Assembly (NCBI GenBank): GCA_946623825.1
Contig: CAMORN010000001.1
Coordinates: 258,246-322,245 of the forward strand
Direction: 5' to 3'
Origin: an uncultured Alphaproteobacteria bacterium
GTDB taxonomy: Bacteria; Pseudomonadota; Alphaproteobacteria; Rs-D84
DNA length: 64,000 bases
Positions 1,256-58,937 of the stretch are shown here, piece after piece. Position 1 is the first letter of the stretch. Each line of letters starts with the position of its first letter. Position numbers and translations under genes: made by a program. Below the pieces are notes generated by a model. It ran no database searches, had not been told where the DNA came from, and saw nothing but the letters and a program-made list of their open reading frames with translations.

Positions 1256-1433
1256 TTCTGGCGCGCCCAGAAGATTTACTCGGGCAAAGCCCTGCGTGGC
1301 AACCGTAACGATTTCACTGCACTTTGTTTGTAAAATCTACTTGTTGTCGAACCATGTTGAGTGTTCTCGTCCGTCTGGGCATAAATTAAAAACCGGTATG
1401 AAACCGGTTTTGAATTTCTGGCGCGCCCAGAAG
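1256..1433 (-). repeat. tRNA-Arg(ACG) 3'-end direct repeats (18 nt, 1256-1273 and 1416-1433) flanking a 142-bp non-coding insert
   Basis: TTCTGGCGCGCCCAGAAG occurs twice, 160 nt apart, and the second copy is the 3' end of the tRNA gene. The interior has a terminator hairpin, an inverted diverged tRNA T-arm/acceptor copy (1356-1382) and an 80-nt module (1274-1353) shared with the tRNA-Ser locus. Confidence 0.9.
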
Positions 1434-6803: not shown

Positions 6804-7238
6804 ATGGCAACAAAAAAACAAACTAAAAAAACAACAAAAACAGTTGCTAAAAAAGCAACAGTAAAAAAAGCCCCAGTCGTTGAACAAGAAACACCATGTA
6901 CATGTGGTTGTGGATGTCATAAACATGGATTTACGCATTTGTTAAAAAAATTGATAATATTGGCAATCGTATTCTTGTTGGGTATGTTTGCAGGTCAATC
7001 AATTCATTTTGGCAAACCAAAATCTTGTCCATTTAATCATATGCAACCAGTATTCACAAATGGTTGCTTGGACATGAGTGCAATCAAATGCCCAAAGATG
7101 CAAGAAAAATTATTGAAAGCCGATGCAAATGATGACGGTTGTGTTTCTGCAGAAGAATATAAATCAATGAAACAAGTAATGCGTCAAGACAAACACGGTA
7201 AAAAATTTCATGGTTTTAAACATCAACAAAAAGATTAA
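6804..7238 (+). CDS. hypothetical membrane protein with Lys-rich N-terminus, Cys cluster and EF-hand-like loop
   Basis: MATKKQTKKTTKTVAKK..., CTCGCGCHKHG, one TM segment, and DANDDGCVSAEEY (a DxDxDG-like loop). Confidence 0.5.
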   Translation: MATKKQTKKTTKTVAKKATVKKAPVVEQETPCTCGCGCHKHGFTHLLKKLIILAIVFLLGMFAGQSIHFGKPKSCPFNHMQPVFTNGCLDMSAIKCPKMQEKLLKADANDDGCVSAEEYKSMKQVMRQDKHGKKFHGFKHQQKD

Positions 7239-15147: not shown

Positions 15148-15375
15148 AAAACACCGCACGGGGCGGTGTTTTCTTATTGTGGCGGAGACGAAGTATTCCC
15201 TTGGCATAAAATGCCTGCGGGGCAACCGTAACGATTACACGGCACATGGTTTGTGTAATCTACTTGTTGTCGAACCTAGCAACTGCGTTGCGAATGGTTC
15301 AAATCTGCCTTGCGTTTGTCGACAATAAAAAAACACCGCACGGGGCGGTGTTTTCTTATTGTGGCGGAGACGAAG
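15148..15375 (-). repeat. 46-nt direct repeats (tRNA-Ser 3' end plus its terminator; 15148-15193 and 15330-15375) flanking a 136-bp non-coding insert
   Basis: AAAACACCGCACGGGGCGGTGTTTTCTTATTGTGGCGGAGACGAAG occurs twice, 182 nt apart. The interior (15194-15276) shares 55/62 identical positions with the tRNA-Arg insert over its core. Confidence 0.9.
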
Positions 15376-15452
15376 GGATTCGAACCCTTGATACCCTTGC
15401 GAGTATACCACATTTCCAATGTGGCGCACTAGACCAACTATGCGACGTCTCC
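15362..15452 (-). tRNA. tRNA-Ser (anticodon GGA), type II with long variable arm
   Basis: The reverse strand has GGAGACG...CCACA-TTGGAAA-TGTGG-(18-nt variable arm)-AAGGG-TTCGAAT-CCCTT-CGTCTCC-G-CCA, 91 nt in total. Confidence 0.9.
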
Positions 15453-23569: not shown

Positions 23570-23599
23570 TTTATTTTCCTTTTTATTTTATCATTCATA

Positions 23600-24996
<1,397 letters not shown>

Positions 24997-38227: not shown

Positions 38228-38304
38228 GCGAGCGTAGCTCAGTTGGCTAGAGCGCAACCTTGCCAAGGTTGAGGTCGAGGGTTCGAGCCCCTTTGCTCGC
38301 ACCA
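38228..38304 (+). tRNA. tRNA-Gly (anticodon GCC)
   Basis: GCGAGCG-TA-GCTC-AGTTGGCTA-GAGC-G-CAACC-TTGCCAA-GGTTG-AGGTC-GAGGG-TTCGAGC-CCCTT-TGCTCGC-A-CCA. Confidence 0.93.
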
Positions 38305-38635
38305 GAATTTATAAACACCCGAAAGGGTGTTTTTTATGTTTAAGCAAAGGGGCGAGAACCCGCAGGGTTGCGAGGCGAGGCAACGGCAGTTGCCGAAGTA
38401 CTTTGCTCGCACCAGAATTTATAAACACCCGAAAGGGTGTTTTTTATGTTTAAGCAAAGGGGCGAGAACCCGCAGGGTTGCGAGGCGAGGCAACGGCAGT
38501 TGCCGAAGTACTTTGCTCGCACCAGAATTTATAAACACCCGAAAGGGTGTTTTTTTATGTTTAAGCAAAGGGGCGAGAACCCGGAGGGTTGCGAGGCGAG
38601 GCAACGACAGTTGCCGAAGTACTTTGCTCGCACCA
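38291..38635 (+). repeat. tandem array of three 110/110/111-bp units, each ending in a copy of the tRNA-Gly 3' end
   Basis: CTTTGCTCGCACCA starts at 38291 (in the tRNA), 38401, 38511 and 38622. Units 1 and 2 are identical and unit 3 differs at 3 positions. Each unit is a terminator hairpin (AAACACCCGAAAGGGTGTTTTTT), then GCAAAGGGGCGAGAACCC (an inverted tRNA T-arm/acceptor copy), then the GGCAAC-GGCA-GTTGCC hairpin, then the tRNA 3' end. Confidence 0.95.
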
Positions 38636-38770
38636 AAGTTTTTTATTAGAAATCCGGGCATTTGCACCGGATTTTTTGTTTTTCACTCGAATTATTGCCC
38701 ACAAACAAAAATCCTGGAAAATCCAGTATTTTTTTGCTTTGGCACACTTGAAAATAAAGGATAAAAACCT

Positions 38771-38971
38771 ATGTTTAAAAAGTGTAAAGCAAACTGTCAA
38801 GCAAATGACAACCTTTATATAAGAAATGATGTGTTTTATTATATGGTCGAATTACCGCGTCAAGATGGTAAAAGACGATATTTTATAAAATCATTACACA
38901 CAAAAGATTATTACGAAGCATTGGAAAGGCATTTTATCCAAATATGGTCACATAAAAACAGCACCTTATAG
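38771..38971 (+). pseudogene. N-terminal fragment (66 codons) of a tyrosine integrase
   Basis: ...NLYIRNDVFYYMVELPRQDGKRRYFIKSLHTKDYYEALER... fits the N-terminal pattern of tRNA-targeting integrases (LY-R-x3-YY ... GKR-x4-SL-T-D-x2-A). No catalytic domain follows. It lies 136 nt after the last tRNA-Gly 3'-end copy. Confidence 0.6.
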
Positions 38972-39082
38972 TGCCATTTATCATAAAACATACATAAACA
39001 CGCCAAATTCAAGCCGTGGACAACGAAAATAAAATCGGCAATAAAACTATAAATCAGAAAGGCAGAACAGTTTATATATTTT

Positions 39083-40090
39083 TTACTTACGTTTGTTTAG
39101 AACATAAAAAATACTTCCAATAAATGTTGTAAATAATGTTACAAAAAACAAATATCTTATAACATGATAAACACTGAAACCCAAAATATCTCTCGCATAC
39201 CAATATTCTATTTGTTCACGTTTATTATCATTTTTGAAATCAATATATTTTGGTTCTACTTTTTTTACACCTTTTTTATCAAAACTTAAACTTATGTATC
39301 CATATTTCTTTATATTTTCATCTCTAATAACTTGACCACTGGATGGGGTTGTATAAAAAGGAACACCTGCAAAATTGTTTTTTTTAAAATAATGAACATG
39401 TCCGAACAACATCACATCAACTTTATATTTTTTTAAAACATTTTCTAACTTATTTTTTGTTAAAACATCTAATTTATCATTACTAATACTTTTTGTAATA
39501 ATTGGTGGAATATGAGAATATATAACACAATTATTAAACATAGGTCTAATTTTTTTCAATGTATCCTCTAACCATTCAAACTGTTCGTCATCTATATTTC
39601 TTGAAGAATTATCCAAAGCTATAAATAAAACATTTCCATAAGAAAACCAATAATACGTATTGCCCATAACATTACGATATGGACGCACATCATATTTATG
39701 TTTTTTAAAAACATCATGATTTCCAGGGACCGCATATAACGGCATGTTTCCAACATGTTTTTTAATTTCGTCTAACAACCAATATTGTCCCAAACTGCTG
39801 GTATGTGTAATGAAATCACCAAGATATAACATAAAACTATAATTTTCATCTGATTTTCTTATATCATCTATAACTTGCTCTAACACATGATTTTCTGCCC
39901 CCGTATCAGACAATACTGCAACAGAAAACTCATTTTGATTTTTAGCAAAAAAATGTGAGGCAGGAGACTTTAAGTAATAGTTTGATTTTGAAAATCTATC
40001 CATTGAACAAACATGAAATACAGATATAAAAAATATACTCAGCACACCTAATATACTTATAACAAAGAAAAATTTATAAACATATTTCAT
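39083..40090 (-). CDS. membrane-anchored calcineurin-like metallophosphoesterase
   Basis: VLSDTG, LYLGDF, VPGNHD, IYSHIPP and LFGHVHY motifs, with N- and C-terminal TM segments. By eye it lies in an AT-richer stretch between tRNA-Gly 3'-end copies. Confidence 0.8.
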   Translation of the reverse strand: MKYVYKFFFVISILGVLSIFFISVFHVCSMDRFSKSNYYLKSPASHFFAKNQNEFSVAVLSDTGAENHVLEQVIDDIRKSDENYSFMLYLGDFITHTSSLGQYWLLDEIKKHVGNMPLYAVPGNHDVFKKHKYDVRPYRNVMGNTYYWFSYGNVLFIALDNSSRNIDDEQFEWLEDTLKKIRPMFNNCVIYSHIPPIITKSISNDKLDVLTKNKLENVLKKYKVDVMLFGHVHYFKKNNFAGVPFYTTPSSGQVIRDENIKKYGYISLSFDKKGVKKVEPKYIDFKNDNKREQIEYWYARDILGFSVYHVIRYLFFVTLFTTFIGSIFYVLNKRK

Positions 40091-40456
40091 AATAGTTCCC
40101 TACATCATATCCATAGATAATTTATTCTTGGTGTGCTATGGTATCACAAAAAAAACGTAATACAAATATATTTTTTTAATGTATAGAAAAATTTTTTACT
40201 ATACGTGATATCGGCTAAGATATATTCTTTGTCAGAATTCCTAACATCAGAATGAATTGAAACAAAACATTAAATAAAAGTCAATGTTATTTTATGAATA
40301 TAAAATACAGTCATTGTAGGTAAAAAAATCGTGTGCTTTTTACAAAAAATACGATAAATTCAAAAAAGTGTCAAGCAAAGTGTCAGGCAAACTGATAAAA
40401 ATGGCTGAATTTCGGGTTAAAACGGACTAAAAAATGCCAAAAAAAGGCGTGATTGT

Positions 40457-40591
40457 GGTTCCCTTTGCTCGCACCAGAAATTATAAACACCCGAAAGGGT
40501 TTTTTTTTTATTGTTGTATTAGCAAAGGGGCGAGAACCCGCAGGGTTGCGAGGCGAGACAACGCAGTTGCCGAAGTACTTTGCTCGCACCA
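40457..40591 (+). repeat. distal copy of the tRNA-Gly-associated unit bracketed by two tRNA 3'-end copies
   Basis: GGTTCCCTTTGCTCGCACCA (40457-40476) is the T-loop/acceptor with a 4-nt deletion. It is followed by the terminator hairpin, GCAAAGGGGCGAGAACCCGCAGGGTTGCGAGGCGAGACAACGCAGTTGCCGAAGTA, and CTTTGCTCGCACCA (40578-40591). Confidence 0.9.
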
Positions 40592-40737
40592 GAAATTATA
40601 AACACCCGAAAGGGTGTTTTTTTTATTTGGTTAAACATGAATAAGTAAAATATTTATAAAATAAATATTGACAAATATATTTATTTGTATATTATATGTA
40701 TAAATAAGTTTTATTTTGTGATAAAGGTTGTAAAAAA

Positions 40738-42027
40738 ATGAAAAGTAAAGATTTAAAGAGTTTTATTGGTGCGTCTGCTTTTATTGGCAGCATGTTAATT
40801 TCTTGTGGTCGTGTTGGTTTACCAGTATCTTCTAAAACCGAAGATAAAACAATTTTACCCAAAAAAGAACAAAAATACGATATTGAAAACGATCAAAGAA
40901 TGCGTCAAAAATATCAAAAAATGTATGCGGATTCTATTCGTTTTGCAAATGGTTATGACAGTATTTGTAACAAAAGTAATATGTTATGGAGAAAAACGGC
41001 AGAGCTTGAATCTCGTGCAGATTCTTTAGCTATGGAAAATTCTTTAGGGGCTGTAATGCAAAGAGAAGTTGAAAGTGCTGCTAATAAAATTCTTAAAGAT
41101 TTTTTAAATAGCGTTTCTGGTGTTTTAAGAATGTATCAAATATCTTTACAAGACTACGTAACAGAAGATAATGATTTTTTATGGTGTTTTAATACTAATG
41201 TACAAAAAGATAATTATGATGGTACGGATTATGTTTTAAAACAACCTTTGATGTATTTTGGTGTTAATACTTGTGGATTTTATGATTCTGAACATGAATT
41301 TAATGAATTGGTCGATATTATAAATCAAATTATTTATGAATCAGATCATGCTAAATCACATAAAAAAGAAATTATGAATAAAATTAATGCTTTGATTAAA
41401 AAGGTAAAGCCAAAATTGATTGCTAGCAGAAAATCTATAGAACGTAAATATTCTGATTATTATGTAGTAATTGACGGACAAGATGCTGCTTTTATATCTT
41501 ATGGAGCAGATGATTGGAATTATGGTTATAGTGATACAGAATATCCAGAAAGACAGGCTGTGGTTAAAGTTACAACTTTAAGTGTATATGGAGAAGATTT
41601 ACCAATAAAATTTTTTGAAGATAAAAAAGCAAAATATGAATTGGTTAATCTAGGAAATAACAGATGGCAAGTAAAAAAGATTTCAAATATAGGTGTGATT
41701 GAAAATACAGCAATATTTACAGCTAAGGACGAAAAGTCTGTTAAAGAATATTATGCGGGGATTGATGCACGTAATTATTCAGAATTTCGTTTTGATCCGG
41801 GACATGATTCTGGTGGAGTACATATTGAAGTAGAGGAAGGTGTAGTTATAAAAAAAGCAAAACAACAATGGTGGCCATCAAGAAATGTTATAAATCAAAT
41901 TGATTCATTAGAAGAGGAATCTATAAAATATGCAAGTCAAGCAGCAAAATTAGAAGAGCAAAAGAAAATAATAAATCAATATGCAGATTCTGTTGCGCGT
42001 GCAATGGTTAACCAATATTGTAAATAG
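40738..42027 (+). CDS. hypothetical lipoprotein (429 aa)
   Basis: The signal ends in LISC (lipobox). A TTGACA-N16-TATTAT promoter lies at about 40669-40696 and a terminator at 42038-42066. Confidence 0.6.
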   Translation: MKSKDLKSFIGASAFIGSMLISCGRVGLPVSSKTEDKTILPKKEQKYDIENDQRMRQKYQKMYADSIRFANGYDSICNKSNMLWRKTAELESRADSLAMENSLGAVMQREVESAANKILKDFLNSVSGVLRMYQISLQDYVTEDNDFLWCFNTNVQKDNYDGTDYVLKQPLMYFGVNTCGFYDSEHEFNELVDIINQIIYESDHAKSHKKEIMNKINALIKKVKPKLIASRKSIERKYSDYYVVIDGQDAAFISYGADDWNYGYSDTEYPERQAVVKVTTLSVYGEDLPIKFFEDKKAKYELVNLGNNRWQVKKISNIGVIENTAIFTAKDEKSVKEYYAGIDARNYSEFRFDPGHDSGGVHIEVEEGVVIKKAKQQWWPSRNVINQIDSLEEESIKYASQAAKLEEQKKIINQYADSVARAMVNQYCK

Positions 42028-42074: not shown

Positions 42075-42118
42075 GCAAAGGGGGGAGTTGCGAGGCGAGG
42101 CAACACAGTTGCCGAAGT
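42075..42118 (+). repeat. partial third copy of the tRNA-Gly-associated unit (no tRNA 3'-end copy)
   Basis: GCAAAGGGGGGAGTTGCGAGGCGAGGCAACACAGTTGCCGAAGT. It keeps the hairpin GGCAAC-ACA-GTTGCC but lacks CGAGAACCCGCA and the CTTTGCTCGCACCA end. Confidence 0.8.
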
Positions 42119-42119
42119 G

Positions 42120-47255: not shown

Positions 47256-50200
47256 TTATTCTATTGAATTATCGTGTGCATTATATGTTTCGTTGTTGTA
47301 TTGCACATGCATCTTTTTATCAGAGATTTTGTTTATATTTATATCATCATTGGTTAATATAATATAATGTACCCCGTCATTTGTTTGTATTGCCATAGAT
47401 GGACCATTTGGTTTTTCGTCTGTTAAACATATCTTGTCATCAGGATTTTCGCCAATATGCATCCATTTCTGGCTTTCGCAATAGAATTCCCATTTTGCAT
47501 ATAATGTCTGTTTGCCGGTGGCTGTATTTGGAATTATGTATGAATCATAACAATCTGTTAAATCTTCATAAGAACACCAGCCCGAGAACAAGAAATTCTT
47601 TTTCGTTGGTGTGCCGTCAATAATGGTTTCTGAACCGTAATTATAAGCATGTGGTGCATTTGCAAAATTTGTACCGCCATTTAACACATATTCAATATAA
47701 TATGTTTCAGGTGTCCATTGTGCGTACAATGTTATATCCCCAACAGAATCTGACGGTATAATAAACACTTGATTATCATTACCATCAAACCAACCATTAA
47801 ATATATATCCAGTATTTGTTGGAACACAATTTATTTCTTTTTCAACACCGACTGTATAATATTCGTTATCACAACCAGAACCACCATTTGTATAATCATA
47901 AATGATTTGATATTCAGCTGTTTCCCAAACGGCAGTCAAAGTTTTATTGCCATTTGAACCGTGTGGCAATTCGGTTATAATATTACCATGTTCATCAACC
48001 CAGTGAATGAAATTATAACCGTCTTTTGTTGGTGTTCCAAATGTGATAGTGTCAGATTCAACAGTATATTCATTTGGTGCGTTTTCATAATTTTCACCGC
48101 CATTTAATATGTATTCAATATTATATATTTCAGGTACCCATTTTGCATATAATGTTATGTCTTGTTCTTGTGTTAAATCAAACACATGTGATAAATCTGC
48201 ATTGTGTTCTATAATTCCACCGTTTTCTGGGGCTGCAATATATACGAAATTATATCCCAAGCCATTTGCAAATTGGTTCCAACCATTGAAAGAATATGCG
48301 TTTCTGAAAGGTTCTGCGTCAATGTAACCGATAATTTGTGTCCAATATATTTTACAAGCTTCCCCTTCGGCACAAACAATATCGTCAGGAACATTTGCCA
48401 CAACATCCCCGCCAGAATTAGTATCAAAATGAATATTTATTTTGCGCGCCCATACGGCAGTCAAAGTTTTATCGCCATTTGACCCATGTGGCAATTCAGT
48501 TATAACATCACCATTTTCATCCAACCAATGAATGAATTTATAACCGTCTTTAGTTGGTGTTCCGAATATAATATTTTCTGAATCTGCGGTATATGTAGCA
48601 GGGGCGTTTTCATAATTTTCACCGCCGTCTAATTCATATGTGATATTAAATATATCTGCGTCCCATTTTGCATATAATGTTTTGTTTCCGACAGAACCAA
48701 CCGGTATGTTTGTTATTATGTCACCTGTAAATTCAGCATTATCATACCAACCAATAAATCCAAAGAATTCGCGTTCGTCTGGGGCTGATATAGGTAAATC
48801 AGAATCCATATTGCTTGAATATTCGGTTGGGTTTGATGCGTTCAATGATTCATCTGCACCATTTAATACATAATTGATAGTGTATTTATAAACACAAGAT
48901 GAAATATCGCCAATATGTTCTTCGTCTTCGGTCCAATATTTATGACCGGAAACATATTCACCACCGTTCGGGGCTTCTGGACATTCTGTGAAACATTTTT
49001 TCATTGTAACATTATCGCCAGAAATAGAATCAGGATATTCAACCGGACACATTTCGCATGCAACATGACCGTCCCAATCAATTTCAAACCCAGTTAGATA
49101 TTGATATTGACCGGCATCACAAACGGTTGAAATATTAGAATTGTTAAAGATATTCGCCATACCGCCCGCGGTATATGTGGCACTACGATTTCCCGCTTCG
49201 TTATCAGATAAATAACCCGTAATACCCTTAAATAATTCAGTCGGCACCGGTGCGGTTAAATATTGTGTGTCTGCAAATGTTTCTTCAAACATAGGATATT
49301 TACTATTAGAAATATCAACTGCTGGTAATGTACCAGAAATATTTTGGAATAATTTTACTGGGATAGGTGTTGCATTACCATTTTCGTCTTTACCAAGATT
49401 AGTTGCCCCCTTGAAAGTCATTCTTAATCCAAGTGGTGCAGTTCCAGTAACATTTTTGAATAAATCTTCTGGTATTGGACCGGTTAAACCAGATGCGTTC
49501 AAGAAAGTTTTATTAAATGAACCATGCTTTATAGGACCTGATATACCTTCAAATAAAGTTGCTGGAATTGGCCCTGTCAGATTAGAACAGTTTTCAAATG
49601 TTCTTGCAAACATATATTCAGCAGGCACACCATTAAAACGACCAAACAAATTTTGTGGTATTGAACCTGTCAGCCCAGAACACCCATTAAATGTGTTTGT
49701 AAACATATAAGTTGCAGGTGTCCCGTTTATGTTTCCAAACAAATTTTGTGGTATTGAACCTGTCAGCCCAGAACACCCATTAAATGTTGATGAAAACATA
49801 TAAGGGGCAGGTGCTCCGTTTATATTTCCAAACAGATTTTCTGGAATTGAACCTGATAGCCCGGAACATCCATAAAATGTTGATGTAAACATATAAGTTG
49901 CAGGTGTCCCGTTTATGTTTCCAAACAGGTTTTCTGGAATTGAACCTGATAGCCCAGAACATCCATAAAAGGTTGATGTAAACATATAAGGGGCAGGAGC
50001 TCCATTTAGATTTCCAAACAGGTTTTCTGGAATTTGACCTGTTATATTTGGATTATTATAAAATGTCCTGTTAAACATACATTTTTGTGGTGCACCAGAT
50101 AATTTACCAAATAAACCACTATATTTTTTGTTGTTTTCAGTGTCGGTTATATCTGCTGGCAAATTTCCAGATAAATTGGTGGCACCAAATGTCAATGCAA

Positions 50201-52652
50201 ACAAAGCATCTGTATAATTTCCATTTAAACCACTAAACAGGTTTTGTGGTATTTCCCCAGATAATTTTGTACAACCATAGAATGATTGGTTAAACATACT
50301 TTTTCTTGGTTGACCAGTTATGTTTGCAAATAATTCTGGTGGAATTGGTCCCTCTAAATTTGTACAGTTTTCAAAAGCAGCAATAAATGTTGGTTGTGTG
50401 CCGTTCGGGGCAGTTGGAAATACAGCGCTTAAATTGCCTTCTATTCGTTTTAATTTGTCGCGCGTTGCGTTGTTAGATTCAGCTTTGAGCCAGCTATTAC
50501 CAAACCAAAAAGTAGGATGATAGTTTCCACCGCAATCATCATTTACCGTATCGTTTGTGTCATAATTAGTCATATTTTTAGAAGACATACCAATTCTGTA
50601 TGTTCCTGCATTTGCATAAGTGTGTTGTTGATATTCGCTTGAAGCAGATGCGATATCAATCGTTCCGTCGCCCCAATCTATATATACTGTTCCTGTATAG
50701 TTTGATACATAAAATGCGAATTTTTCCCCCGCATTCATTGGTGTTGTTGTCATCCAGAATGCTGAATTTGGATATGTATGACCGTATATTGTAACCGTAT
50801 TAGAACCATTGGATAGATTCTGTAATAAATCAAGCGTCAATGTTGTAATACGGTTTGAAGAAGTGTTTATATTAAATCCGTTTTTATCATTAAACCACGC
50901 ATAGAAAGATAGATTTTCCGATAATGTTGGGTCGGTTAAATCAAATGGTTGTGTTTCGCCAACAACCCATTGTGTTGGGTTTGTTGTTGTCAGTGCTTGT
51001 CCATTTTCATCAACATATTTGATTGTGTATATGTTTGTTTTCCATTTTGCGTATAATGTTTTGTTGCCTGAAAATTGGGTGGATGTTGTTATTGGTTCAC
51101 CGCTGAAACCAGTGTTATCATACCAACCAATAAAATCAGAATTTTGTCTGGTTGTTGTTGGTATTGTGTTCAATGTATATCCGCCGGCATTTGCGTCTGA
51201 ATAATAAATTTTTTGCACCGCCACCGCAGAGCCACCATTTGTGACAAATGTCAATGTTGCATAACATTTTGTTTTATCTGTTGCACCTTCGTCAGAATTT
51301 GGGTATTCGGTTGGGCATTTTTCAATAGATGTTGTTGTGTCTAAACAACTGTATTCGCCACCACGACAAAATGAATTCGCAGGGCAATTTGTTGGTTCTG
51401 GTGTTGTGATGGTGGACATCAAAGTTGTCTTGAAATCATTATCCCATGAAAAATGGTCACCACAATTACCCGCACATTCATTTCCGCAAATATCCCCATT
51501 TTCAAATGTTCCAGATAAAATCCATTTTGTAGAACCAAATATATCGGTCATATTACACCAACAATTTGAACCATAAATTGTGTCTGAATCAAATTGAACA
51601 TCGGATAATTCTTTGTAAGAACCGCCAATGTCACTGCACGCGGAACGACCACTGAAATTTATTTGTGGGTCAGAACCAAAATGAACCAACCATGAATTTT
51701 CAGGTTTGTTTTCAATTAAACTGTCGTCATCACAGAATGTGACACTGCGTGATTTATGGCATTTATAACCCGTTCCAGATATATCATACACCGGTGGAAT
51801 ATATTGTCCCGGCTGTAATATAATAGAGCATGAATAATTTCTGGTTATACATGTTTGGGTTGTTGTGTCCCAATATTCTGTTTCTGCATCACAAGAATCA
51901 GGTCCCGTCTTTCTTATACATGGATTTTCAATTGTTGCACCCGCACCATTTGCAGTTTCATATTTGGTATCGCATACGCATGAAGATGAACCGCTTTCGC
52001 TGTGTGAATTTTCAGGACATTGATATAAACCATTTGTCCCAGATTCTATGTCGCCACCCGGACAATATGAATCAGCAGGGCAATCAGCCGTTCTTAAAAT
52101 CGCAGTATTAAACAAGTTTTCTTTTATCGAATTGTCTGGCCATCTGTAAACATGTCCCGCTAATTGTGCGCAATCGTGTGCGCAATTTTCCCAACATGGT
52201 TGATTATTATCAATTGCACCACGCGCAACCCATTTTGATTTATATGAATAATTGTTATTTGGGTCGTTTTCACCGTTTAATCTGCACCAACAAAGATACC
52301 CATTACCAACATTGCCACGATCAAAATCTTCATCTGAAACATCGCCCCACGAACCGTAAGTTAAACATGCAGAATCACCGTATATTTTACCGTAATCAAA
52401 TATTGTATAGAAAGAATTTTCAGGAATGTTTTCAGATGCCTGATTATTGTTATATCCGTGATATTGAATAGAAGATTCATTGTTCGGCGCATCTGCGTTC
52501 ACATCAACCCATGTTGGCAAAGGTTCTGAAACAATATATTTACCAGAATCTATTGTTATTGCGTTTGCGTTTAAAGAACAGAGCGACACGAACAATACGG
52601 ATAAAATCCGTATGACAAAAAAACTGCAAAAAAACGACGGTTTTTTATGCAA
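47256..52652 (-). CDS. giant secreted cysteine-rich repeat protein (1798 aa) with Listeria-Bacteroides (Flg_new-type) repeats and LRR-like 31-aa repeats
   Basis: The TTG start is the only start that preserves the signal peptide MHKKPSFFCSFFVIRILSVLFVSLCSLNANA. There are two Cys-rich N-terminal modules of about 200 aa. Repeated Y-I-Y-x-L-N-G-G...G-Y-x-F-x-G-W...L-Y-A-x-W units are present, plus a central block of F-x-G-C-S-G-L-x-G-S-I-P-x-N-L-F repeats. Confidence 0.8.
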   Translation of the reverse strand: MHKKPSFFCSFFVIRILSVLFVSLCSLNANAITIDSGKYIVSEPLPTWVDVNADAPNNESSIQYHGYNNNQASENIPENSFYTIFDYGKIYGDSACLTYGSWGDVSDEDFDRGNVGNGYLCWCRLNGENDPNNNYSYKSKWVARGAIDNNQPCWENCAHDCAQLAGHVYRWPDNSIKENLFNTAILRTADCPADSYCPGGDIESGTNGLYQCPENSHSESGSSSCVCDTKYETANGAGATIENPCIRKTGPDSCDAETEYWDTTTQTCITRNYSCSIILQPGQYIPPVYDISGTGYKCHKSRSVTFCDDDSLIENKPENSWLVHFGSDPQINFSGRSACSDIGGSYKELSDVQFDSDTIYGSNCWCNMTDIFGSTKWILSGTFENGDICGNECAGNCGDHFSWDNDFKTTLMSTITTPEPTNCPANSFCRGGEYSCLDTTTSIEKCPTEYPNSDEGATDKTKCYATLTFVTNGGSAVAVQKIYYSDANAGGYTLNTIPTTTRQNSDFIGWYDNTGFSGEPITTSTQFSGNKTLYAKWKTNIYTIKYVDENGQALTTTNPTQWVVGETQPFDLTDPTLSENLSFYAWFNDKNGFNINTSSNRITTLTLDLLQNLSNGSNTVTIYGHTYPNSAFWMTTTPMNAGEKFAFYVSNYTGTVYIDWGDGTIDIASASSEYQQHTYANAGTYRIGMSSKNMTNYDTNDTVNDDCGGNYHPTFWFGNSWLKAESNNATRDKLKRIEGNLSAVFPTAPNGTQPTFIAAFENCTNLEGPIPPELFANITGQPRKSMFNQSFYGCTKLSGEIPQNLFSGLNGNYTDALFALTFGATNLSGNLPADITDTENNKKYSGLFGKLSGAPQKCMFNRTFYNNPNITGQIPENLFGNLNGAPAPYMFTSTFYGCSGLSGSIPENLFGNINGTPATYMFTSTFYGCSGLSGSIPENLFGNINGAPAPYMFSSTFNGCSGLTGSIPQNLFGNINGTPATYMFTNTFNGCSGLTGSIPQNLFGRFNGVPAEYMFARTFENCSNLTGPIPATLFEGISGPIKHGSFNKTFLNASGLTGPIPEDLFKNVTGTAPLGLRMTFKGATNLGKDENGNATPIPVKLFQNISGTLPAVDISNSKYPMFEETFADTQYLTAPVPTELFKGITGYLSDNEAGNRSATYTAGGMANIFNNSNISTVCDAGQYQYLTGFEIDWDGHVACEMCPVEYPDSISGDNVTMKKCFTECPEAPNGGEYVSGHKYWTEDEEHIGDISSCVYKYTINYVLNGADESLNASNPTEYSSNMDSDLPISAPDEREFFGFIGWYDNAEFTGDIITNIPVGSVGNKTLYAKWDADIFNITYELDGGENYENAPATYTADSENIIFGTPTKDGYKFIHWLDENGDVITELPHGSNGDKTLTAVWARKINIHFDTNSGGDVVANVPDDIVCAEGEACKIYWTQIIGYIDAEPFRNAYSFNGWNQFANGLGYNFVYIAAPENGGIIEHNADLSHVFDLTQEQDITLYAKWVPEIYNIEYILNGGENYENAPNEYTVESDTITFGTPTKDGYNFIHWVDEHGNIITELPHGSNGNKTLTAVWETAEYQIIYDYTNGGSGCDNEYYTVGVEKEINCVPTNTGYIFNGWFDGNDNQVFIIPSDSVGDITLYAQWTPETYYIEYVLNGGTNFANAPHAYNYGSETIIDGTPTKKNFLFSGWCSYEDLTDCYDSYIIPNTATGKQTLYAKWEFYCESQKWMHIGENPDDKICLTDEKPNGPSMAIQTNDGVHYIILTNDDININKISDKKMHVQYNNETYNAHDNSIE
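49590..50070 (-). repeat. about five near-identical 93-bp (31-codon) tandem repeats inside the giant gene
   Basis: CCAAAC... register points lie at 49642, 49735, 49828, 49921 and 50014, a period of 93 nt. They encode FGNINGTPATYMFTSTFYGCSGLSGSIPENL-type units. Confidence 0.85.
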
Positions 52653-56318: not shown

Positions 56319-58937
56319 TTATTGGTCATATTGAAACATCCAGCCTATGAAATTTTTACCTTTTTGGTGCAGGGCTTTGAATGGGGTATTAATATCACTG
56401 CCATATGTTATGGTATTTTCGTTGTTTTGTCCGGCATATTCAGGGTCAATATTGTCCCAAATAACAGAAATAACATTCGGTGTACATGCAAAATCTTCTA
56501 TGTGGTATCCGGTTTCACAAGCTTCACATTGTTCATATGTCGTTGCCCCCGCAATTGACACAGTGTCTTGTGGACATTGTTCGATTCCCTGTGTGCCGGA
56601 AACTATGTCATAATCTTGTCCGTACGGACAATAATAACCTTTTTCACATATTTTGCATTCTGCTATTTCGTTTTCTGCATCAACATATAAATACTGACCC
56701 ACAGAACACGATTGGTAATCATGCATTGCACAATCACCAGGAAAATCGTCGTGACTGCCGAAAGGACACGCAGGGCATATGTTTAAATATGAAATTGCTG
56801 CTGCTGAATCTGTAAATATATTTGAATACATAGATTTTGGTATGGTGTTGCCCGTATAATTTTCAGCCATTGACAGCATATATGGGAAAGTGGTTCTTGT
56901 TTGAAAATTTGTTCCATTTAATCCGTAAATATCGTCCATGCTGCAAAACGCTGAAATCGCAGGGGTGCAATTACCATCGTAATTACCAGTTGTTGTATCA
57001 TATTTACAGAAAGCAATACTCAGAGCAGTTTCTTGATTAAGTGTATTTTCCCCATCAAATGTGTTTTGTGCAGTTGCAAGGTTATACAATGTTTCAAAAT
57101 TTGAAAACTGCAATTGTTCGACAATAATAGGCAGAGAATCAACCCCAATTGAACCGTACACACGACCCGCAATACATTCGTCTAATGTAATTTCACCGTT
57201 ATCATTAAAATCGACACCATACCCAGCCATTTCAGCAATAGGTCCGTTTTCAAAACTTGCAGAATGTACCGGACAAACCGCATCTGGTCGTGAACATCTG
57301 TCTAATAATGTAATTGAATTGGCGCTTAAATTAAACATACTGGCGTAATAAGATTGTGGAATTGTTTGTTGATAGTAATCTTCCACTAAATCTATAAAAT
57401 AATTCAGTGTATTAATAGTGGACGGTTGTAAAGATTCCAAATATATTAATTCATTTACATCGCACAAATTCACAGCCTGAGTGCAAGATAAATCATAATT
57501 TCCGGTTTGTGTGTTATATCTACAAAAAGCACTCGCACCGATTGCGTTTTTGTTCAAAGGTTCGTCTTTATTATCGCCAAGATATTTATAAATATGTACC
57601 CAATTTTCATAATTTTCGTGTTCTGTGACGCTGTCTGTCCATGCGCGCCAATTGGAATATCCCATGCTTGCCACGCATTCATCAAGTGTTTGTTCGCCGT
57701 CGCCATTAAAATCAAACCATTGACCATAAGATTCCCCAACCGGTCCAATCGGGTCTGTCGTAGAATGGGCAGGACACGCAAACGATAAACCTGTTCCGTG
57801 GCATCTGTCGTATGTTGCGTTATCATACGGTCTGTAAATAAACATAGAATCAAAATGGGCCAAATCAGATTGTGTAAAATCTAGCCACCCACCAACGGTT
57901 TGCAGCAAGCTGTTTGATGAACTAAACAAATTATTACGTGTTTCATCAATGGTGCATACGGAAACTTTATATGTACATGATAAATCATAATTACCAGTAT
58001 TTGGATTATATTTACAGAATGATACACTTATGCCCGCATTTTGAACAACTTCGTCTGATGAAAGGGAATGTTCTTGAAGATACGTCCCATCTTGTATATT
58101 TATTCGTGCAACATAACATTCGTTTGAGTCTATCGTTCCATTATTGTTAAAATCAAATCTTGTCGATGGCATTTCAATATAATCTAATAAGCCATCGCTT
58201 GTGTTATGATATGCACCATCAATATCAAACGAAAGGTCTGATGAATATTGTGGACAACCCGTGATATTATCAACACAGCGGGATCCGTCATAATAATAAT
58301 TTTCTGAACATTGTGGAATACATTCGCCGTATGCGCTGTCATATTCATATCCATAATCACAAGAATGTTCCACACAATTGGCGCCATCCCAATAGTAATT
58401 GGAACCATATTCGGTTTCGCACCAGAAACTTTTATCTTTACATTCTGTACCGTCCCAATAACCATCTTGATCATTGCATTCTTGTTCGTAATCGTATTCA
58501 CAGGTTGTGCCATTCCAATAAGAATAAGGACCTTGAGCATTGCATTCTTGTTCATAATCATATTCGCAGGTTTGGTTCTCTGTGTCCCAATAATAATAAG
58601 AGCCTTGGTCATTGCATTCTTGTTCAGAATCATATTCACAGGTTTGATTTTCTGCGTCCCAATAATTGTATCCACCCAAATCATTGCATTCTTGTTCTTC
58701 GTTGTTATCTGGTTGACATGTTTCGCCGTCATAGTAATAATTTTCACCATAATTATCTATACATTCTTGGTTGTTATCATATTCACAGGTTTGACTATCA
58801 TCGTCCCAATAATAATAAGAACCTTGGGCGGTACAATCGTCTGCGTCATCAGCCATTGTATTAAATGAAAGCAGGGCGGCAATTGATATAAAAGCAAGCC
58901 ACCTGAATAATTTGCCAAATATATAATAAAATGGCAT
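56319..58937 (-). CDS. secreted acidic cysteine-rich repeat protein (872 aa)
   Basis: Signal peptide, then about 8 tandem 20-aa units of the form QECN-x-QG-x-YYYWD-x-ENQTCEYD. There are three modules of about 150 aa, each with a DFN-x-(N/D)G-x-(I/T)-(D/L)-x-x-EC calcium-loop-like motif and (S/A)FC(K/R)Y(N/D)-x-x-TGNYD-x-x-CT. The C-terminus ends in a partial Flg_new-type repeat. Confidence 0.75.
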   Translation of the reverse strand: MPFYYIFGKLFRWLAFISIAALLSFNTMADDADDCTAQGSYYYWDDDSQTCEYDNNQECIDNYGENYYYDGETCQPDNNEEQECNDLGGYNYWDAENQTCEYDSEQECNDQGSYYYWDTENQTCEYDYEQECNAQGPYSYWNGTTCEYDYEQECNDQDGYWDGTECKDKSFWCETEYGSNYYWDGANCVEHSCDYGYEYDSAYGECIPQCSENYYYDGSRCVDNITGCPQYSSDLSFDIDGAYHNTSDGLLDYIEMPSTRFDFNNNGTIDSNECYVARINIQDGTYLQEHSLSSDEVVQNAGISVSFCKYNPNTGNYDLSCTYKVSVCTIDETRNNLFSSSNSLLQTVGGWLDFTQSDLAHFDSMFIYRPYDNATYDRCHGTGLSFACPAHSTTDPIGPVGESYGQWFDFNGDGEQTLDECVASMGYSNWRAWTDSVTEHENYENWVHIYKYLGDNKDEPLNKNAIGASAFCRYNTQTGNYDLSCTQAVNLCDVNELIYLESLQPSTINTLNYFIDLVEDYYQQTIPQSYYASMFNLSANSITLLDRCSRPDAVCPVHSASFENGPIAEMAGYGVDFNDNGEITLDECIAGRVYGSIGVDSLPIIVEQLQFSNFETLYNLATAQNTFDGENTLNQETALSIAFCKYDTTTGNYDGNCTPAISAFCSMDDIYGLNGTNFQTRTTFPYMLSMAENYTGNTIPKSMYSNIFTDSAAAISYLNICPACPFGSHDDFPGDCAMHDYQSCSVGQYLYVDAENEIAECKICEKGYYCPYGQDYDIVSGTQGIEQCPQDTVSIAGATTYEQCEACETGYHIEDFACTPNVISVIWDNIDPEYAGQNNENTITYGSDINTPFKALHQKGKNFIGWMFQYDQ

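Follow-up and report, generated by a model that had tools for sequence, protein, structure and literature searches.

The 64,000-nt stretch of DNA analysed here, which we will refer to as the window (contig CAMORN010000001.1, positions 258,246 to 322,245), comes from an uncultured alphaproteobacterium and is low in GC content (~35%). A circularly permuted transfer-messenger RNA gene of the alpha type (Table 1) marks the organism as an alphaproteobacterium. Directly behind its tRNA-Gly(GCC) gene stands an array of three tandem units, each of which closes with a new copy of the tRNA 3' end. On balance, we favour reading this array as three tandem copies of a miniature mobile cassette, devoid of any open reading frame (ORF) and specific for the 3' end of tRNA-Gly(GCC), with a fourth, older copy 2 kb downstream. 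The module inside each unit, which we will call X, belongs to a large family linked to tRNA 3' ends, whose members accompany tRNAs of at least 12 identities in the Enterousia-like Alphaproteobacteria of the gut. The family is apparently undescribed, and no description of such tRNA-linked mini-elements was found in the literature. The main rival is that X is a structured RNA useful to the host; scars of a lost island, retro-copies and an assembly artefact are less likely than the favoured reading.

The array behind tRNA-Gly(GCC)

Tandem Repeats Finder reports the segment 38291-38635 with a period of 110, 3.1 copies, 98% matches and a score of 667. The last 14 nt of the tRNA gene, CTTTGCTCGCACCA (hereafter the core), occur exactly at 38291, 38401, 38511 and 38622, which gives the periods of 110, 110 and 111 nt that an earlier note, made from the sequence alone, had claimed. 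Two more exact copies lie at 40463 and 40578, six in all, and allowing up to two mismatches raises the count to 7, where shuffles predict 0.24. Each unit is composed, in order, of an intrinsic terminator (AAACACCC-GAAA-GGGTGTTT, then a T-run), the 57-nt module X (GCAAAGGGGCGAG-AACCCGCAGGG-TTGCGAGGCGAG-GCAAC-GGCA-GTTGC-CGAAGTA) and the 14-nt core; the region holds 9 terminator-like sites against 2.0 expected, and the units contain no ORF (Table 1). The hairpin terminator noted before in each unit was thus recovered with its T-run, as was the 16/18 inverted match, in which GCAAAGGGGCGAGAACCC differs at two positions from the reverse-complemented T-arm/acceptor of the tRNA. Units 1 and 2 are identical, as claimed. 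Unit 3 differs from them by three changes: its T-run is longer by one T, the loop of its first hairpin reads GGA instead of GCA, and that of the second GACA instead of GGCA. The array was rightly held not to be made of clustered regularly interspaced short palindromic repeats (CRISPR): the whole 110 bp repeats, unique spacers are lacking, and the matches to CRISPR direct-repeat models of Rfam are sub-threshold and cover the terminator hairpin only (Table 1 lists all features).

Scaffold_247 of an independent metagenome assembly (ERZ28612945) has three units identical to these and ends 4 nt past the fourth core; the array is therefore not the product of one assembler. The copy number is at least two identical units plus one variant, an exact count being unproven from short reads, since two identical 110-bp units are not reliably countable from them. 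This second assembly, of the same sample series, breaks exactly at the array end (L001 ends at window position 38639) and again inside the right-end repeats of the island described below (L004 starts at 40392). Assembly breaks at the tRNA-Gly locus, which may be heterogeneous in the population. That a single unit was expanded or mis-joined by the assembler would suit the identity of units 1 and 2, which are shorter than typical reads plus k-mers, and the breaks of other assemblies at or within the locus. Nevertheless, the second assembly gives the same three units, units 3 and 4 are distinguishable variants, and arrays of the same module occur in several unrelated metagenome-assembled genomes (MAGs), so we regard an artefact as barely credible.

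Downstream of the array lie a degenerate 1.8-kb island, a fourth unit and a decayed X, all three of which had been overlooked in the earlier note. The island is bounded by core copies, has its own terminator, and carries a fragment of an integrase and short AAAGTGTMARGC repeats near both ends, one set of which falls within the start of the integrase-fragment ORF. Its right end differs in sequence from X, and it is an element separate from X, but one using the same core. Unit 4 is also present in scaffold_221 of ERZ28612945, and L084 holds an orthologous unit. Divergence rises away from the tRNA, from the identical units 1 and 2 through unit 3 with its three changes to the more diverged unit 4 and the most decayed X at 42075. 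The 429-aa ORF at 40738-42027 may be flanked by two old X sites, as cargo would be by cassettes. A full-length integrase was sought among the relatives of the 66-aa fragment, and all of them proved short (44-108 aa, 19 clusters); because only short homologues occur in related lineages, the fragment may have been kept as a small protein and not be a simple pseudogene. The orthologous, less-reduced island of relatives (L084, 6550-7143; L101, 4835-5135) encodes, close to its right end and adjoining the distal X unit, a small serine recombinase (resolvase, ~197 aa), a gene that the island in the window has lost.

Orthologous loci, fetched using relatives of the 66-aa fragment, differ in the number of units between tRNA and island. 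The island stands directly after the tRNA-Gly(GCC) CCA in the pig-gut contigs L084-L091, with 0 units between and a unit (core-terminator-X-core) on its far side only; one short-form unit separates tRNA and island in L101, and three do so in the window. At tRNA-Gly(CCC), the same type of island directly follows the tRNA in L097, L098 and L100, and one unit of a longer module form (type A, see below) precedes it in L092-L095. The junctions of unit gain or loss always fall at the 14-nt core. These patterns are consistent with insertion or duplication on the proximal side, older material being displaced outward as in tycheposons, and the idea, already present in the earlier note, of a tiny att-bearing cassette multiplied by integration or unequal crossing-over accords with the 0, 1 and 3 units and with the core junctions.

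The X family and its fold

A scan for X(Gly), the module behind tRNA-Gly (GCGAGGCGAGRCAAC-N2-6-GTTGCC, over one genome per species), returned 20 loci, 12 of which are gut or rumen alphaproteobacterial MAGs (Ca. Enterousia, RUG, RGIG, UBA3635), the remaining 8 being unrelated chance matches. In all twelve, where the sequence suffices (L013 and L022 end inside or before the tRNA, which leaves their context incomplete), the order is tRNA-Gly(GCC), terminator, X and the genome's own tRNA 3' end, and a second, similar terminator usually comes after the core copy. At least 15 related lineages of Alphaproteobacteria from gut or rumen have X behind tRNA-Gly(GCC). The module has a long form, a short one without AACCCGNAGGG and, in one case (L012), one with a larger insert; tandem or partial second units are present in L007, L012, L014 and L018. 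The flanks GCGAGGCGAG and CGAAGTAC are invariant across lineages, and the hairpin between them has free loops and four stems, three of them fully complementary (GGCAAC/GTTGCC, GGTGGC/GCCACC, GGTTAT/ATAACC) and one imperfect (GGGCGACC/GGTCGGCCC, L084). The neighbouring terminators are of several unrelated types, the second one being retained via compensatory changes, for instance in L006.

Two further inserts of the window, behind tRNA-Arg(ACG) and tRNA-Ser(GGA), share their architecture with the Gly units, in keeping with the link to the Arg insert drawn before; tRNA-Met and tRNA-Arg(CCG) in the window have no insert. Both begin with a terminator, a degenerate reverse complement of their own tRNA 3' region (in the Arg insert, an inverted tRNA-like arm before the type-A module), a small hairpin and GGTTCGAC, and continue with a long hairpin, GGTTGCC, a variable hairpin, a GAGGGAAT-like sequence and the tRNA 3'-end copy; a 68-nt block is common to both at 87% identity. 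A search of metagenomes with the 20-mer GGTTCGACAACAAGTAGATT of these inserts gave 59 loci and, including the window, 69 copies of the type-A module. A same-strand tRNA gene lies up to 300 nt upstream of 47 of these 69, with 11 anticodons (Arg-ACG, Arg-CCG, Gln-TTG, Ser-GGA, Ser-CGA, Ser-TGA, Pro-CGG, Pro-GGG, Pro-TGG, Lys-CTT, Lys-TTT); of the others, 7 are later array units, 10 lie at the edge of a contig and 5 come after another type of module or another insert. Type-A copies form tandem arrays and include many decayed examples, some truncated and others with a lost or mutated CCA or core (L033/74/76, L037, L066, L041 unit 2, L080), as would be expected of selfish DNA. Occupancy also differs between species: the Ser-GGA site is empty in L050, the Pro-GGG site in L052 and L061, and the Arg-CCG site in the window. 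The direct repeat, that is, the duplicated target, varies between loci from 15 to about 62 nt.

The type-A module contains GTAG plus an 8-bp hairpin that the Gly-type module lacks; judged from the sequences, X(Gly) looks like the 3' half of a type-A module whose long hairpin was deleted between two GGTT repeats. The type-A module reads GGTTCGA, ~85 nt, AATCC, that is, the T-loop motif GGTTCGAAT split by an insert. The inverted arm is clear for Arg, Gly and some Gln, Ser and Lys loci and weak for Pro and Ser-CGA, and was consequently dropped as a universal feature; arm complementarity is moderate (cognate -13.7 vs non-cognate -11.5 kcal/mol). At about 7860-7990 of L081, behind tRNA-Lys(CTT), a small hairpin element (CCACCCCTTCTTTCATAAAGAAGGGGAATG) is inserted within the core copy of a type-A unit, so these genomes harbour further miniature repeats.

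In an alignment of 32 distinct type-A modules, 94.9% of cells in the proposed helices are paired, versus 81.2% in column shuffles (0/500 shuffles reach the observed value) and 23-48% in slid controls, and 9 pairs show double-sided changes. The 3-bp helix bracketing the variable hairpin, for instance, appears as CCC/GGG, ACC/GGT, CGC/GCG, AGC/GCT and GGC/GCC. On this evidence, a folded single strand is under selection; counts of G.T versus A.C gave no signal for RNA or DNA, or for either strand. In X(Gly), the helices that covary are the variable hairpin and P1 (GCAAWG/CWTTGC), the latter together with the tRNA: where the T-stem is CATTGC, X begins with GCAATG, and where it is CTTTGC, with GCAAAG. 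Single-sequence folds of the Gly (both strands), Arg and Ser inserts are not significantly better than shuffles (z -1.3 to -1.9), and the structure is hence supported by comparative data alone. The acceptor minihelix GCGAG:CTCGC suggested in the earlier note did not withstand this comparison: the pairing is intact in 13/16 units, and in L006, L014 and L024 (L006 and L024 being among the 16), where tRNA and copied end became CCCGC, GCGAG stayed unchanged, leaving an A.C mismatch and the minihelix without comparative support.

Such strong covariation would also suit a role of X at the tRNA locus, either as a structured RNA with a function or as a cis-element; X might, for instance, be a tRNA-trailer RNA whose tRNA-like 3' end is matured by tRNA-processing enzymes, the repeats being incidental local duplications of a host gene. 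Also in favour are the position of X, always on the tRNA strand and 3' of the tRNA, ending in an authentic NCCA and then a terminator; flanks that are constant while loops and adjacent terminators vary; and the compensatory change that preserves the second terminator of L006. We nonetheless hold this account improbable, if worth serious weight. A strong terminator opens every unit and no promoter-like site was found within the units, so that distal units are unlikely to be expressed; units 2-4 would be nearly silent, and the earlier suggestion that read-through transcripts carry up to four RNase-processable ends becomes doubtful. Moreover, many copies are truncated or without CCA or core, presence at a given tRNA varies among species, single-sequence folds do not rise significantly above shuffles, and no Rfam family matches: in the window, only tRNA and transfer-messenger RNA (tmRNA) pass the gathering score of Rfam 15, and at E<=10 nothing credible covers the Gly and Ser inserts.

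The units could also be inert attR-side scars of a deleted prophage or island that once bore an integrase, multiplied by unequal crossing-over. Integrative elements classically leave direct repeats of a tRNA 3' end, the array has an integrase fragment beside it, and partial tRNAs and successive integrations at one tRNA are known (bioRxiv 10.1101/2020.12.28.424599; PMC3146451). The ends of the resident island, on the contrary, differ from X, and X is never the arm of a gene-bearing element in ~100 loci, core and terminator always preceding it; in particular, the earlier note had itself named the conserved junction of a normal prophage attR as the finding that would speak against it, and X is conserved with no prophage attached. 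The same internal module serves at least 11 tRNA cores, neutral scars would not be expected to evolve by compensation or to keep their flanks invariant over at least 15 lineages, and there is no match in phage, IMG/VR or plasmid collections, all of which makes scars an unlikely explanation.

Retroplasmids such as Mauriceville of Neurospora offer an analogy for yet another origin, in which a trailer RNA running from CCA to CCA would be reverse transcribed with template switching into concatemers that recombine into the locus. In favour, the unit boundaries fall exactly at CCA, the direct repeats vary in length in a way that resembles variable target-site duplications, and the 3' end of the units is tRNA-like. 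The CCA is genome-encoded, though, and so not diagnostic; the duplicated terminator and spacer match native downstream sequence, a better fit to duplication at the DNA level; and no reverse transcriptase (RT) was seen in the loci examined, although the motif scans were crude and aimed at recombinases and HUH enzymes. We therefore consider retro-copying very improbable.

GIY-YIG elements and the proposed mechanism

In L032, an element composed of a structured leader of ~130 nt and a gene for an 81-aa GIY-YIG nuclease (6864-7109) starts right after the tRNA-Gln CCA; behind it come the 3' portion of an X(Gln) module and a tRNA-end copy. Its homologues form 132 clusters, mostly of 80-81 aa, and the assignment in L032 and L102-L119 is to PF01541 (precomputed). 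Comparable elements stand at tRNA-Gln(TTG) in L102, with a second, truncated element behind the first; at tRNA-Gln(CTG) in L103-L108, followed by a 16-nt tRNA-end copy; behind a tRNA and a type-A unit in L109; and, as a 63%-identical homologue from other samples, abutting the CCA of a tRNA-Arg(ACG) 3' fragment in L110-L119. All 13 distinct 5' junctions (13/13) lie directly after the final A of CCA or a degenerate equivalent. What stands upstream is a tRNA or a fragment of one, or else the core of an X unit, as with X(Gly) in L005 and with X at Gln and Arg-CCG loci. The elements regenerate 16-17 nt of the tRNA end; three of the five examined (L032, L102 and L109; not L104 or L110) end, like X, with GAGGGAAT or GAGGGAAC plus the core. 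Tandem elements are found, as is interleaving with X units.

The link between these elements and X lies in a common target, a common 3' junction and their interleaved arrangement; on such sequence grounds, the GIY-YIG element is a candidate autonomous partner of the X units; it looks like an undescribed homing element of tRNA ends. Pairing is possible between an internal GGGTGG and CCA plus the first three bases of the element, and where the junction reads CCA|CAC, the internal sequence is GTGTGG. A likeness of the 3' end of the GIY-YIG ORF to the 5' part of type A was not upheld by alignment. Rfam at E<=1 gave no credible match over the GIY-YIG elements, no homologue of the nuclease was matched in the plasmid collection searched, and the window contains no GIY-YIG ORF.

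Under the favoured cassette reading, the terminator within the cassette would keep the tRNA gene terminated, and because the cassette carries a copy of the 14-nt core, every insertion would leave an intact tRNA gene and a new target copy. Recombination between core copies would bring in new units at the core nearest the tRNA, or duplicate them from it, while older units and other elements, here the integrase-fragment island, would be pushed outward. The recombination could be either site-specific or break-induced, in the latter case after a trans-acting nuclease has cut the 3' region of the tRNA gene; the best candidate for this role would be the 81-aa GIY-YIG protein of the sister elements, which insert after the same CCA ends. 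Unequal crossing-over between the ~55-nt core-plus-terminator repeats would expand or contract the array.

Several observations weigh against this account. Clustering of 454 flanking ORFs gave syntenic housekeeping neighbours only and no recurrent gene; no recombinase, nuclease or RT gene recurs beside the ORF-less units, RT not having been properly searched; and the window has none of these enzymes except a housekeeping XerC/D-like gene 14 kb away. The GIY-YIG partner is seen at Gln or Arg loci of other genomes only, and its leader shows no similarity to X above shuffled controls. The matching of the arms to each tRNA is unexplained by the cassette model. The polymorphism of 0, 1 and 3 units can be read, at least in part, as loss by deletion between cores instead of gain, and neither an excised or circular form nor an empty/filled-site pair within one species was observed. 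Finally, invariant X(Gly) flanks beside diverged terminators could equally signal a function beneficial to the host.

Motif scans for tyrosine and serine recombinases and HUH enzymes in the examined loci gave only XerC/D-like genes and island resolvases, and Pfam searches of the ORFs near the tRNAs of the window gave no integrase. The reverse complement of the core resembles the XerC arm of dif, a likeness considered coincidental since it follows from CCA plus acceptor stem and is absent from other tRNA cores. A phage or virus origin of the units was rejected: blastn searches of 50,697 phage records with the Gly unit and the Arg insert yielded chance matches or none, and exact scans of IMG/VR with both module motifs gave 0 matches.

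A broader and clearly more doubtful reading would unite X units and GIY-YIG elements in one undescribed class of "tRNA-end homing" elements, whose target is the CCA end of tRNA genes. A folded nucleic-acid module would base-pair with, or mimic, the tRNA 3' region for recognition, the candidates being the inverted arm in X and the pairing CCA|CNC : GNGTGG in the GIY-YIG leader. The minimal 81-aa nuclease would make the break, and the ORF-less miniatures would ride on it as the homing-endonuclease counterpart of miniature inverted-repeat transposable elements (MITEs), re-targetable to any tRNA via their arms.

Table 1. Features of the window and, in the last five rows, GIY-YIG elements of other loci, with positions in those loci.
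Feature	Position	Strand	Details
tRNA-Gly(GCC) gene, encoded CCA	38228-38304	+	ARAGORN; Rfam tRNA 65.9 bits
Core, last 14 nt of tRNA-Gly(GCC)	38291-38304	+	CTTTGCTCGCACCA; the segment that repeats
Unit 1	38305-38414	+	terminator 38313-38339, X 38344-38400, core copy 38401-38414
Unit 2	38415-38524	+	X 38454-38510, core 38511-38524; 100% identical to unit 1
Unit 3	38525-38635	+	111 nt, 3 changes; X 38565-38621, core 38622-38635
Degenerate integrated island	38636-40462	+	1.8 kb; core copies at both bounds
Integrase N-terminal fragment, 66 aa	38771-38971	+	DUF6538, E=7e-4, below Pfam cutoff
12-nt AAAGTGTMARGC repeats near both island ends	38779-38805 and 40365-40391		Tandem Repeats Finder
Metallophosphoesterase gene	39083-40090	-	Metallophos, 2.6e-19
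Core copy at island right end	40463-40476	+	preceded by T-arm-like GTGGTTCC
Unit 4	40477-40591	+	more diverged; terminator, X 40522-40577, core 40578-40591
Presumed native tRNA terminator	40600-40627		follows unit 4
Decayed short-form X, no core	42075-42119	+	GCAAAGGGGGGAGTTGCGAGGCGAGGCAACACAGTTGCCGAAGTG; after terminator of ORF 40738-42027
Insert after tRNA-Arg(ACG) (1419-1495, -)	1259-1418	-	type-A start GGTTCGAC at 1353; tRNA 3'-end copy 1273-1259
Insert after tRNA-Ser(GGA) (15362-15452, -)	15180-15361	-	182 nt, duplicated terminator, type-A module; tRNA 3'-end copy 15193-15180
Permuted two-piece alpha-type tmRNA	23597-23949	-	tag AANDNVRFAMAA; Rfam
93-bp tandem repeats, coding	49642-50042		in 1798-aa Flg_new/LRR-type ORF 47256-52652 (-)
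72-bp tandem repeats, coding	58466-58697		in large surface-protein ORF 56319-58937 (-)
GIY-YIG element, L032	6734-7166
GIY-YIG element, L102	1432-1880		second, truncated copy to about 2110
GIY-YIG element, L104	1394-1786
GIY-YIG element, L109	1565-1945		second 5' end at about 3299
GIY-YIG element, L110	1084-1446

Related systems and meaning

Integration at a tRNA 3' end with restoration of the gene is already known; what is new are the gene-less units of 110-190 bp, the conserved module and the possible GIY-YIG partner. Tycheposons of Prochlorococcus leave partial tRNAs and integrate successively at one tRNA (bioRxiv 10.1101/2020.12.28.424599), genomic islands at ssrA of Dehalococcoides show partial copies and successive integrations at one site (PMC3146451), and accretion has been described for integrative and conjugative elements, integrative mobilizable elements and cis-mobilizable elements (CIMEs) (PMC5704250). 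Like tRNA-targeting islands and CIMEs, the units are flanked by a full tRNA gene and 3'-end direct repeats, the target gene is regenerated, gene-proximal insertions would push older elements out, remnants and extra partial tRNAs pile up, and non-autonomous forms retain att sites only. Occupied and unoccupied sites are both present in relatives, in a pattern in which the directions of gain and loss are indistinguishable. Unlike those elements, the units are of only 110-190 bp and have neither a gene nor an associated or servicing integrase (the 66-aa fragment belongs to the other element, whose arms are unrelated), and one family of conserved, covarying folded modules goes with at least 12 tRNA cores.

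The closest studied analogy of the GIY-YIG and X elements would be SegB of phages T4 and T6, a GIY-YIG homing endonuclease encoded among tRNA genes, which recognizes the cleavage-site motif RAWTSGAAC and drives tandem segmental amplification of a tRNA-containing repeat via short homologies (PMC13096335). We read this motif as the reverse complement of the T-loop sequence GTTCSAWTY, and the longer X modules likewise read as a T-loop split by an insert; the 81-aa GIY-YIG element, too, sits at a tRNA CCA, in tandem and interleaved with X units, and its insertion site is fixed, with X units at the same ends. SegB is, in contrast, a larger phage protein with a DNA-binding part and amplifies whole tRNA genes, and no ORF-less derivative of it has been described, while cleavage by the 81-aa protein is putative, the window is without its gene, and a nuclease is encoded not in the units but only in sister elements elsewhere.

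Other short repeats resemble the units in part. Integron cassettes with attC sites, and clusters of such sites lacking the integrase, form arrays of short cassettes with palindromic sites conserved in structure and a fixed proximal insertion point, and ORF-less cassettes exist. The units are similarly arrayed, short, structured and proximally inserted, but the array holds a single kind of cassette, a tRNA 3' end serves as the target, and attI, an intI-like gene in the window and the attC motifs RYYYAAC/GTTRRRY are all missing; on inspection, GGCAAC/GTTGCC is off motif and forms a tight hairpin, not site ends. Repetitive extragenic palindromic (REP) sequences and the bacterial interspersed mosaic elements (BIMEs) built from them, which go with REP-associated tyrosine transposases, and the MITEs and palindrome-associated transposable elements derived from IS200/IS605 are short, gene-less extragenic hairpin repeats, often located after terminators. 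As in REPs, stems change by compensation, and the long hairpin of type A is preceded by GTAG. Unlike REPs and BIMEs, X copies are tied to tRNA 3' ends and not dispersed, the decayed X at 42075 being the one exception, and they duplicate 14-62 nt of their target; no Y1/HUH transposase motif was found in the loci examined, which are not whole genomes. Neither are inverted repeats of a parent insertion sequence and a fixed-length duplication, as in MITEs, found: the arms copy the local tRNA end and the duplication varies. The folded single-stranded attP of CTX-phi-type integrative mobile elements exploiting Xer (XerCD) typically gives tandem arrays, and inverted target-like copies, as in X, could fold into a duplex mimicking the chromosomal target; unlike there, the target is a tRNA gene and not dif, phage genes are lacking, and the complementarity of the arms is moderate. 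The 93-bp and 72-bp coding repeats elsewhere in the window are unrelated to the tRNA elements.

For annotation, these repeats are not to be called CRISPRs, prophage ends or tRNA pseudogenes. The elements explain assembly breaks at tRNA loci in these reduced gut alphaproteobacterial genomes, and mark tRNA ends as hotspots of copy-number variation. If mobile, they would be the smallest known elements to use the safe-harbour trick of genomic islands, inserting at a tRNA 3' end and rebuilding it, and would do so with no gene carried, one folded module having been adapted to a dozen tRNA targets. This raises the question of whether target specificity is encoded in nucleic-acid arms or in a protein, and the 81-aa GIY-YIG nuclease would stand as a possible minimal homing enzyme.

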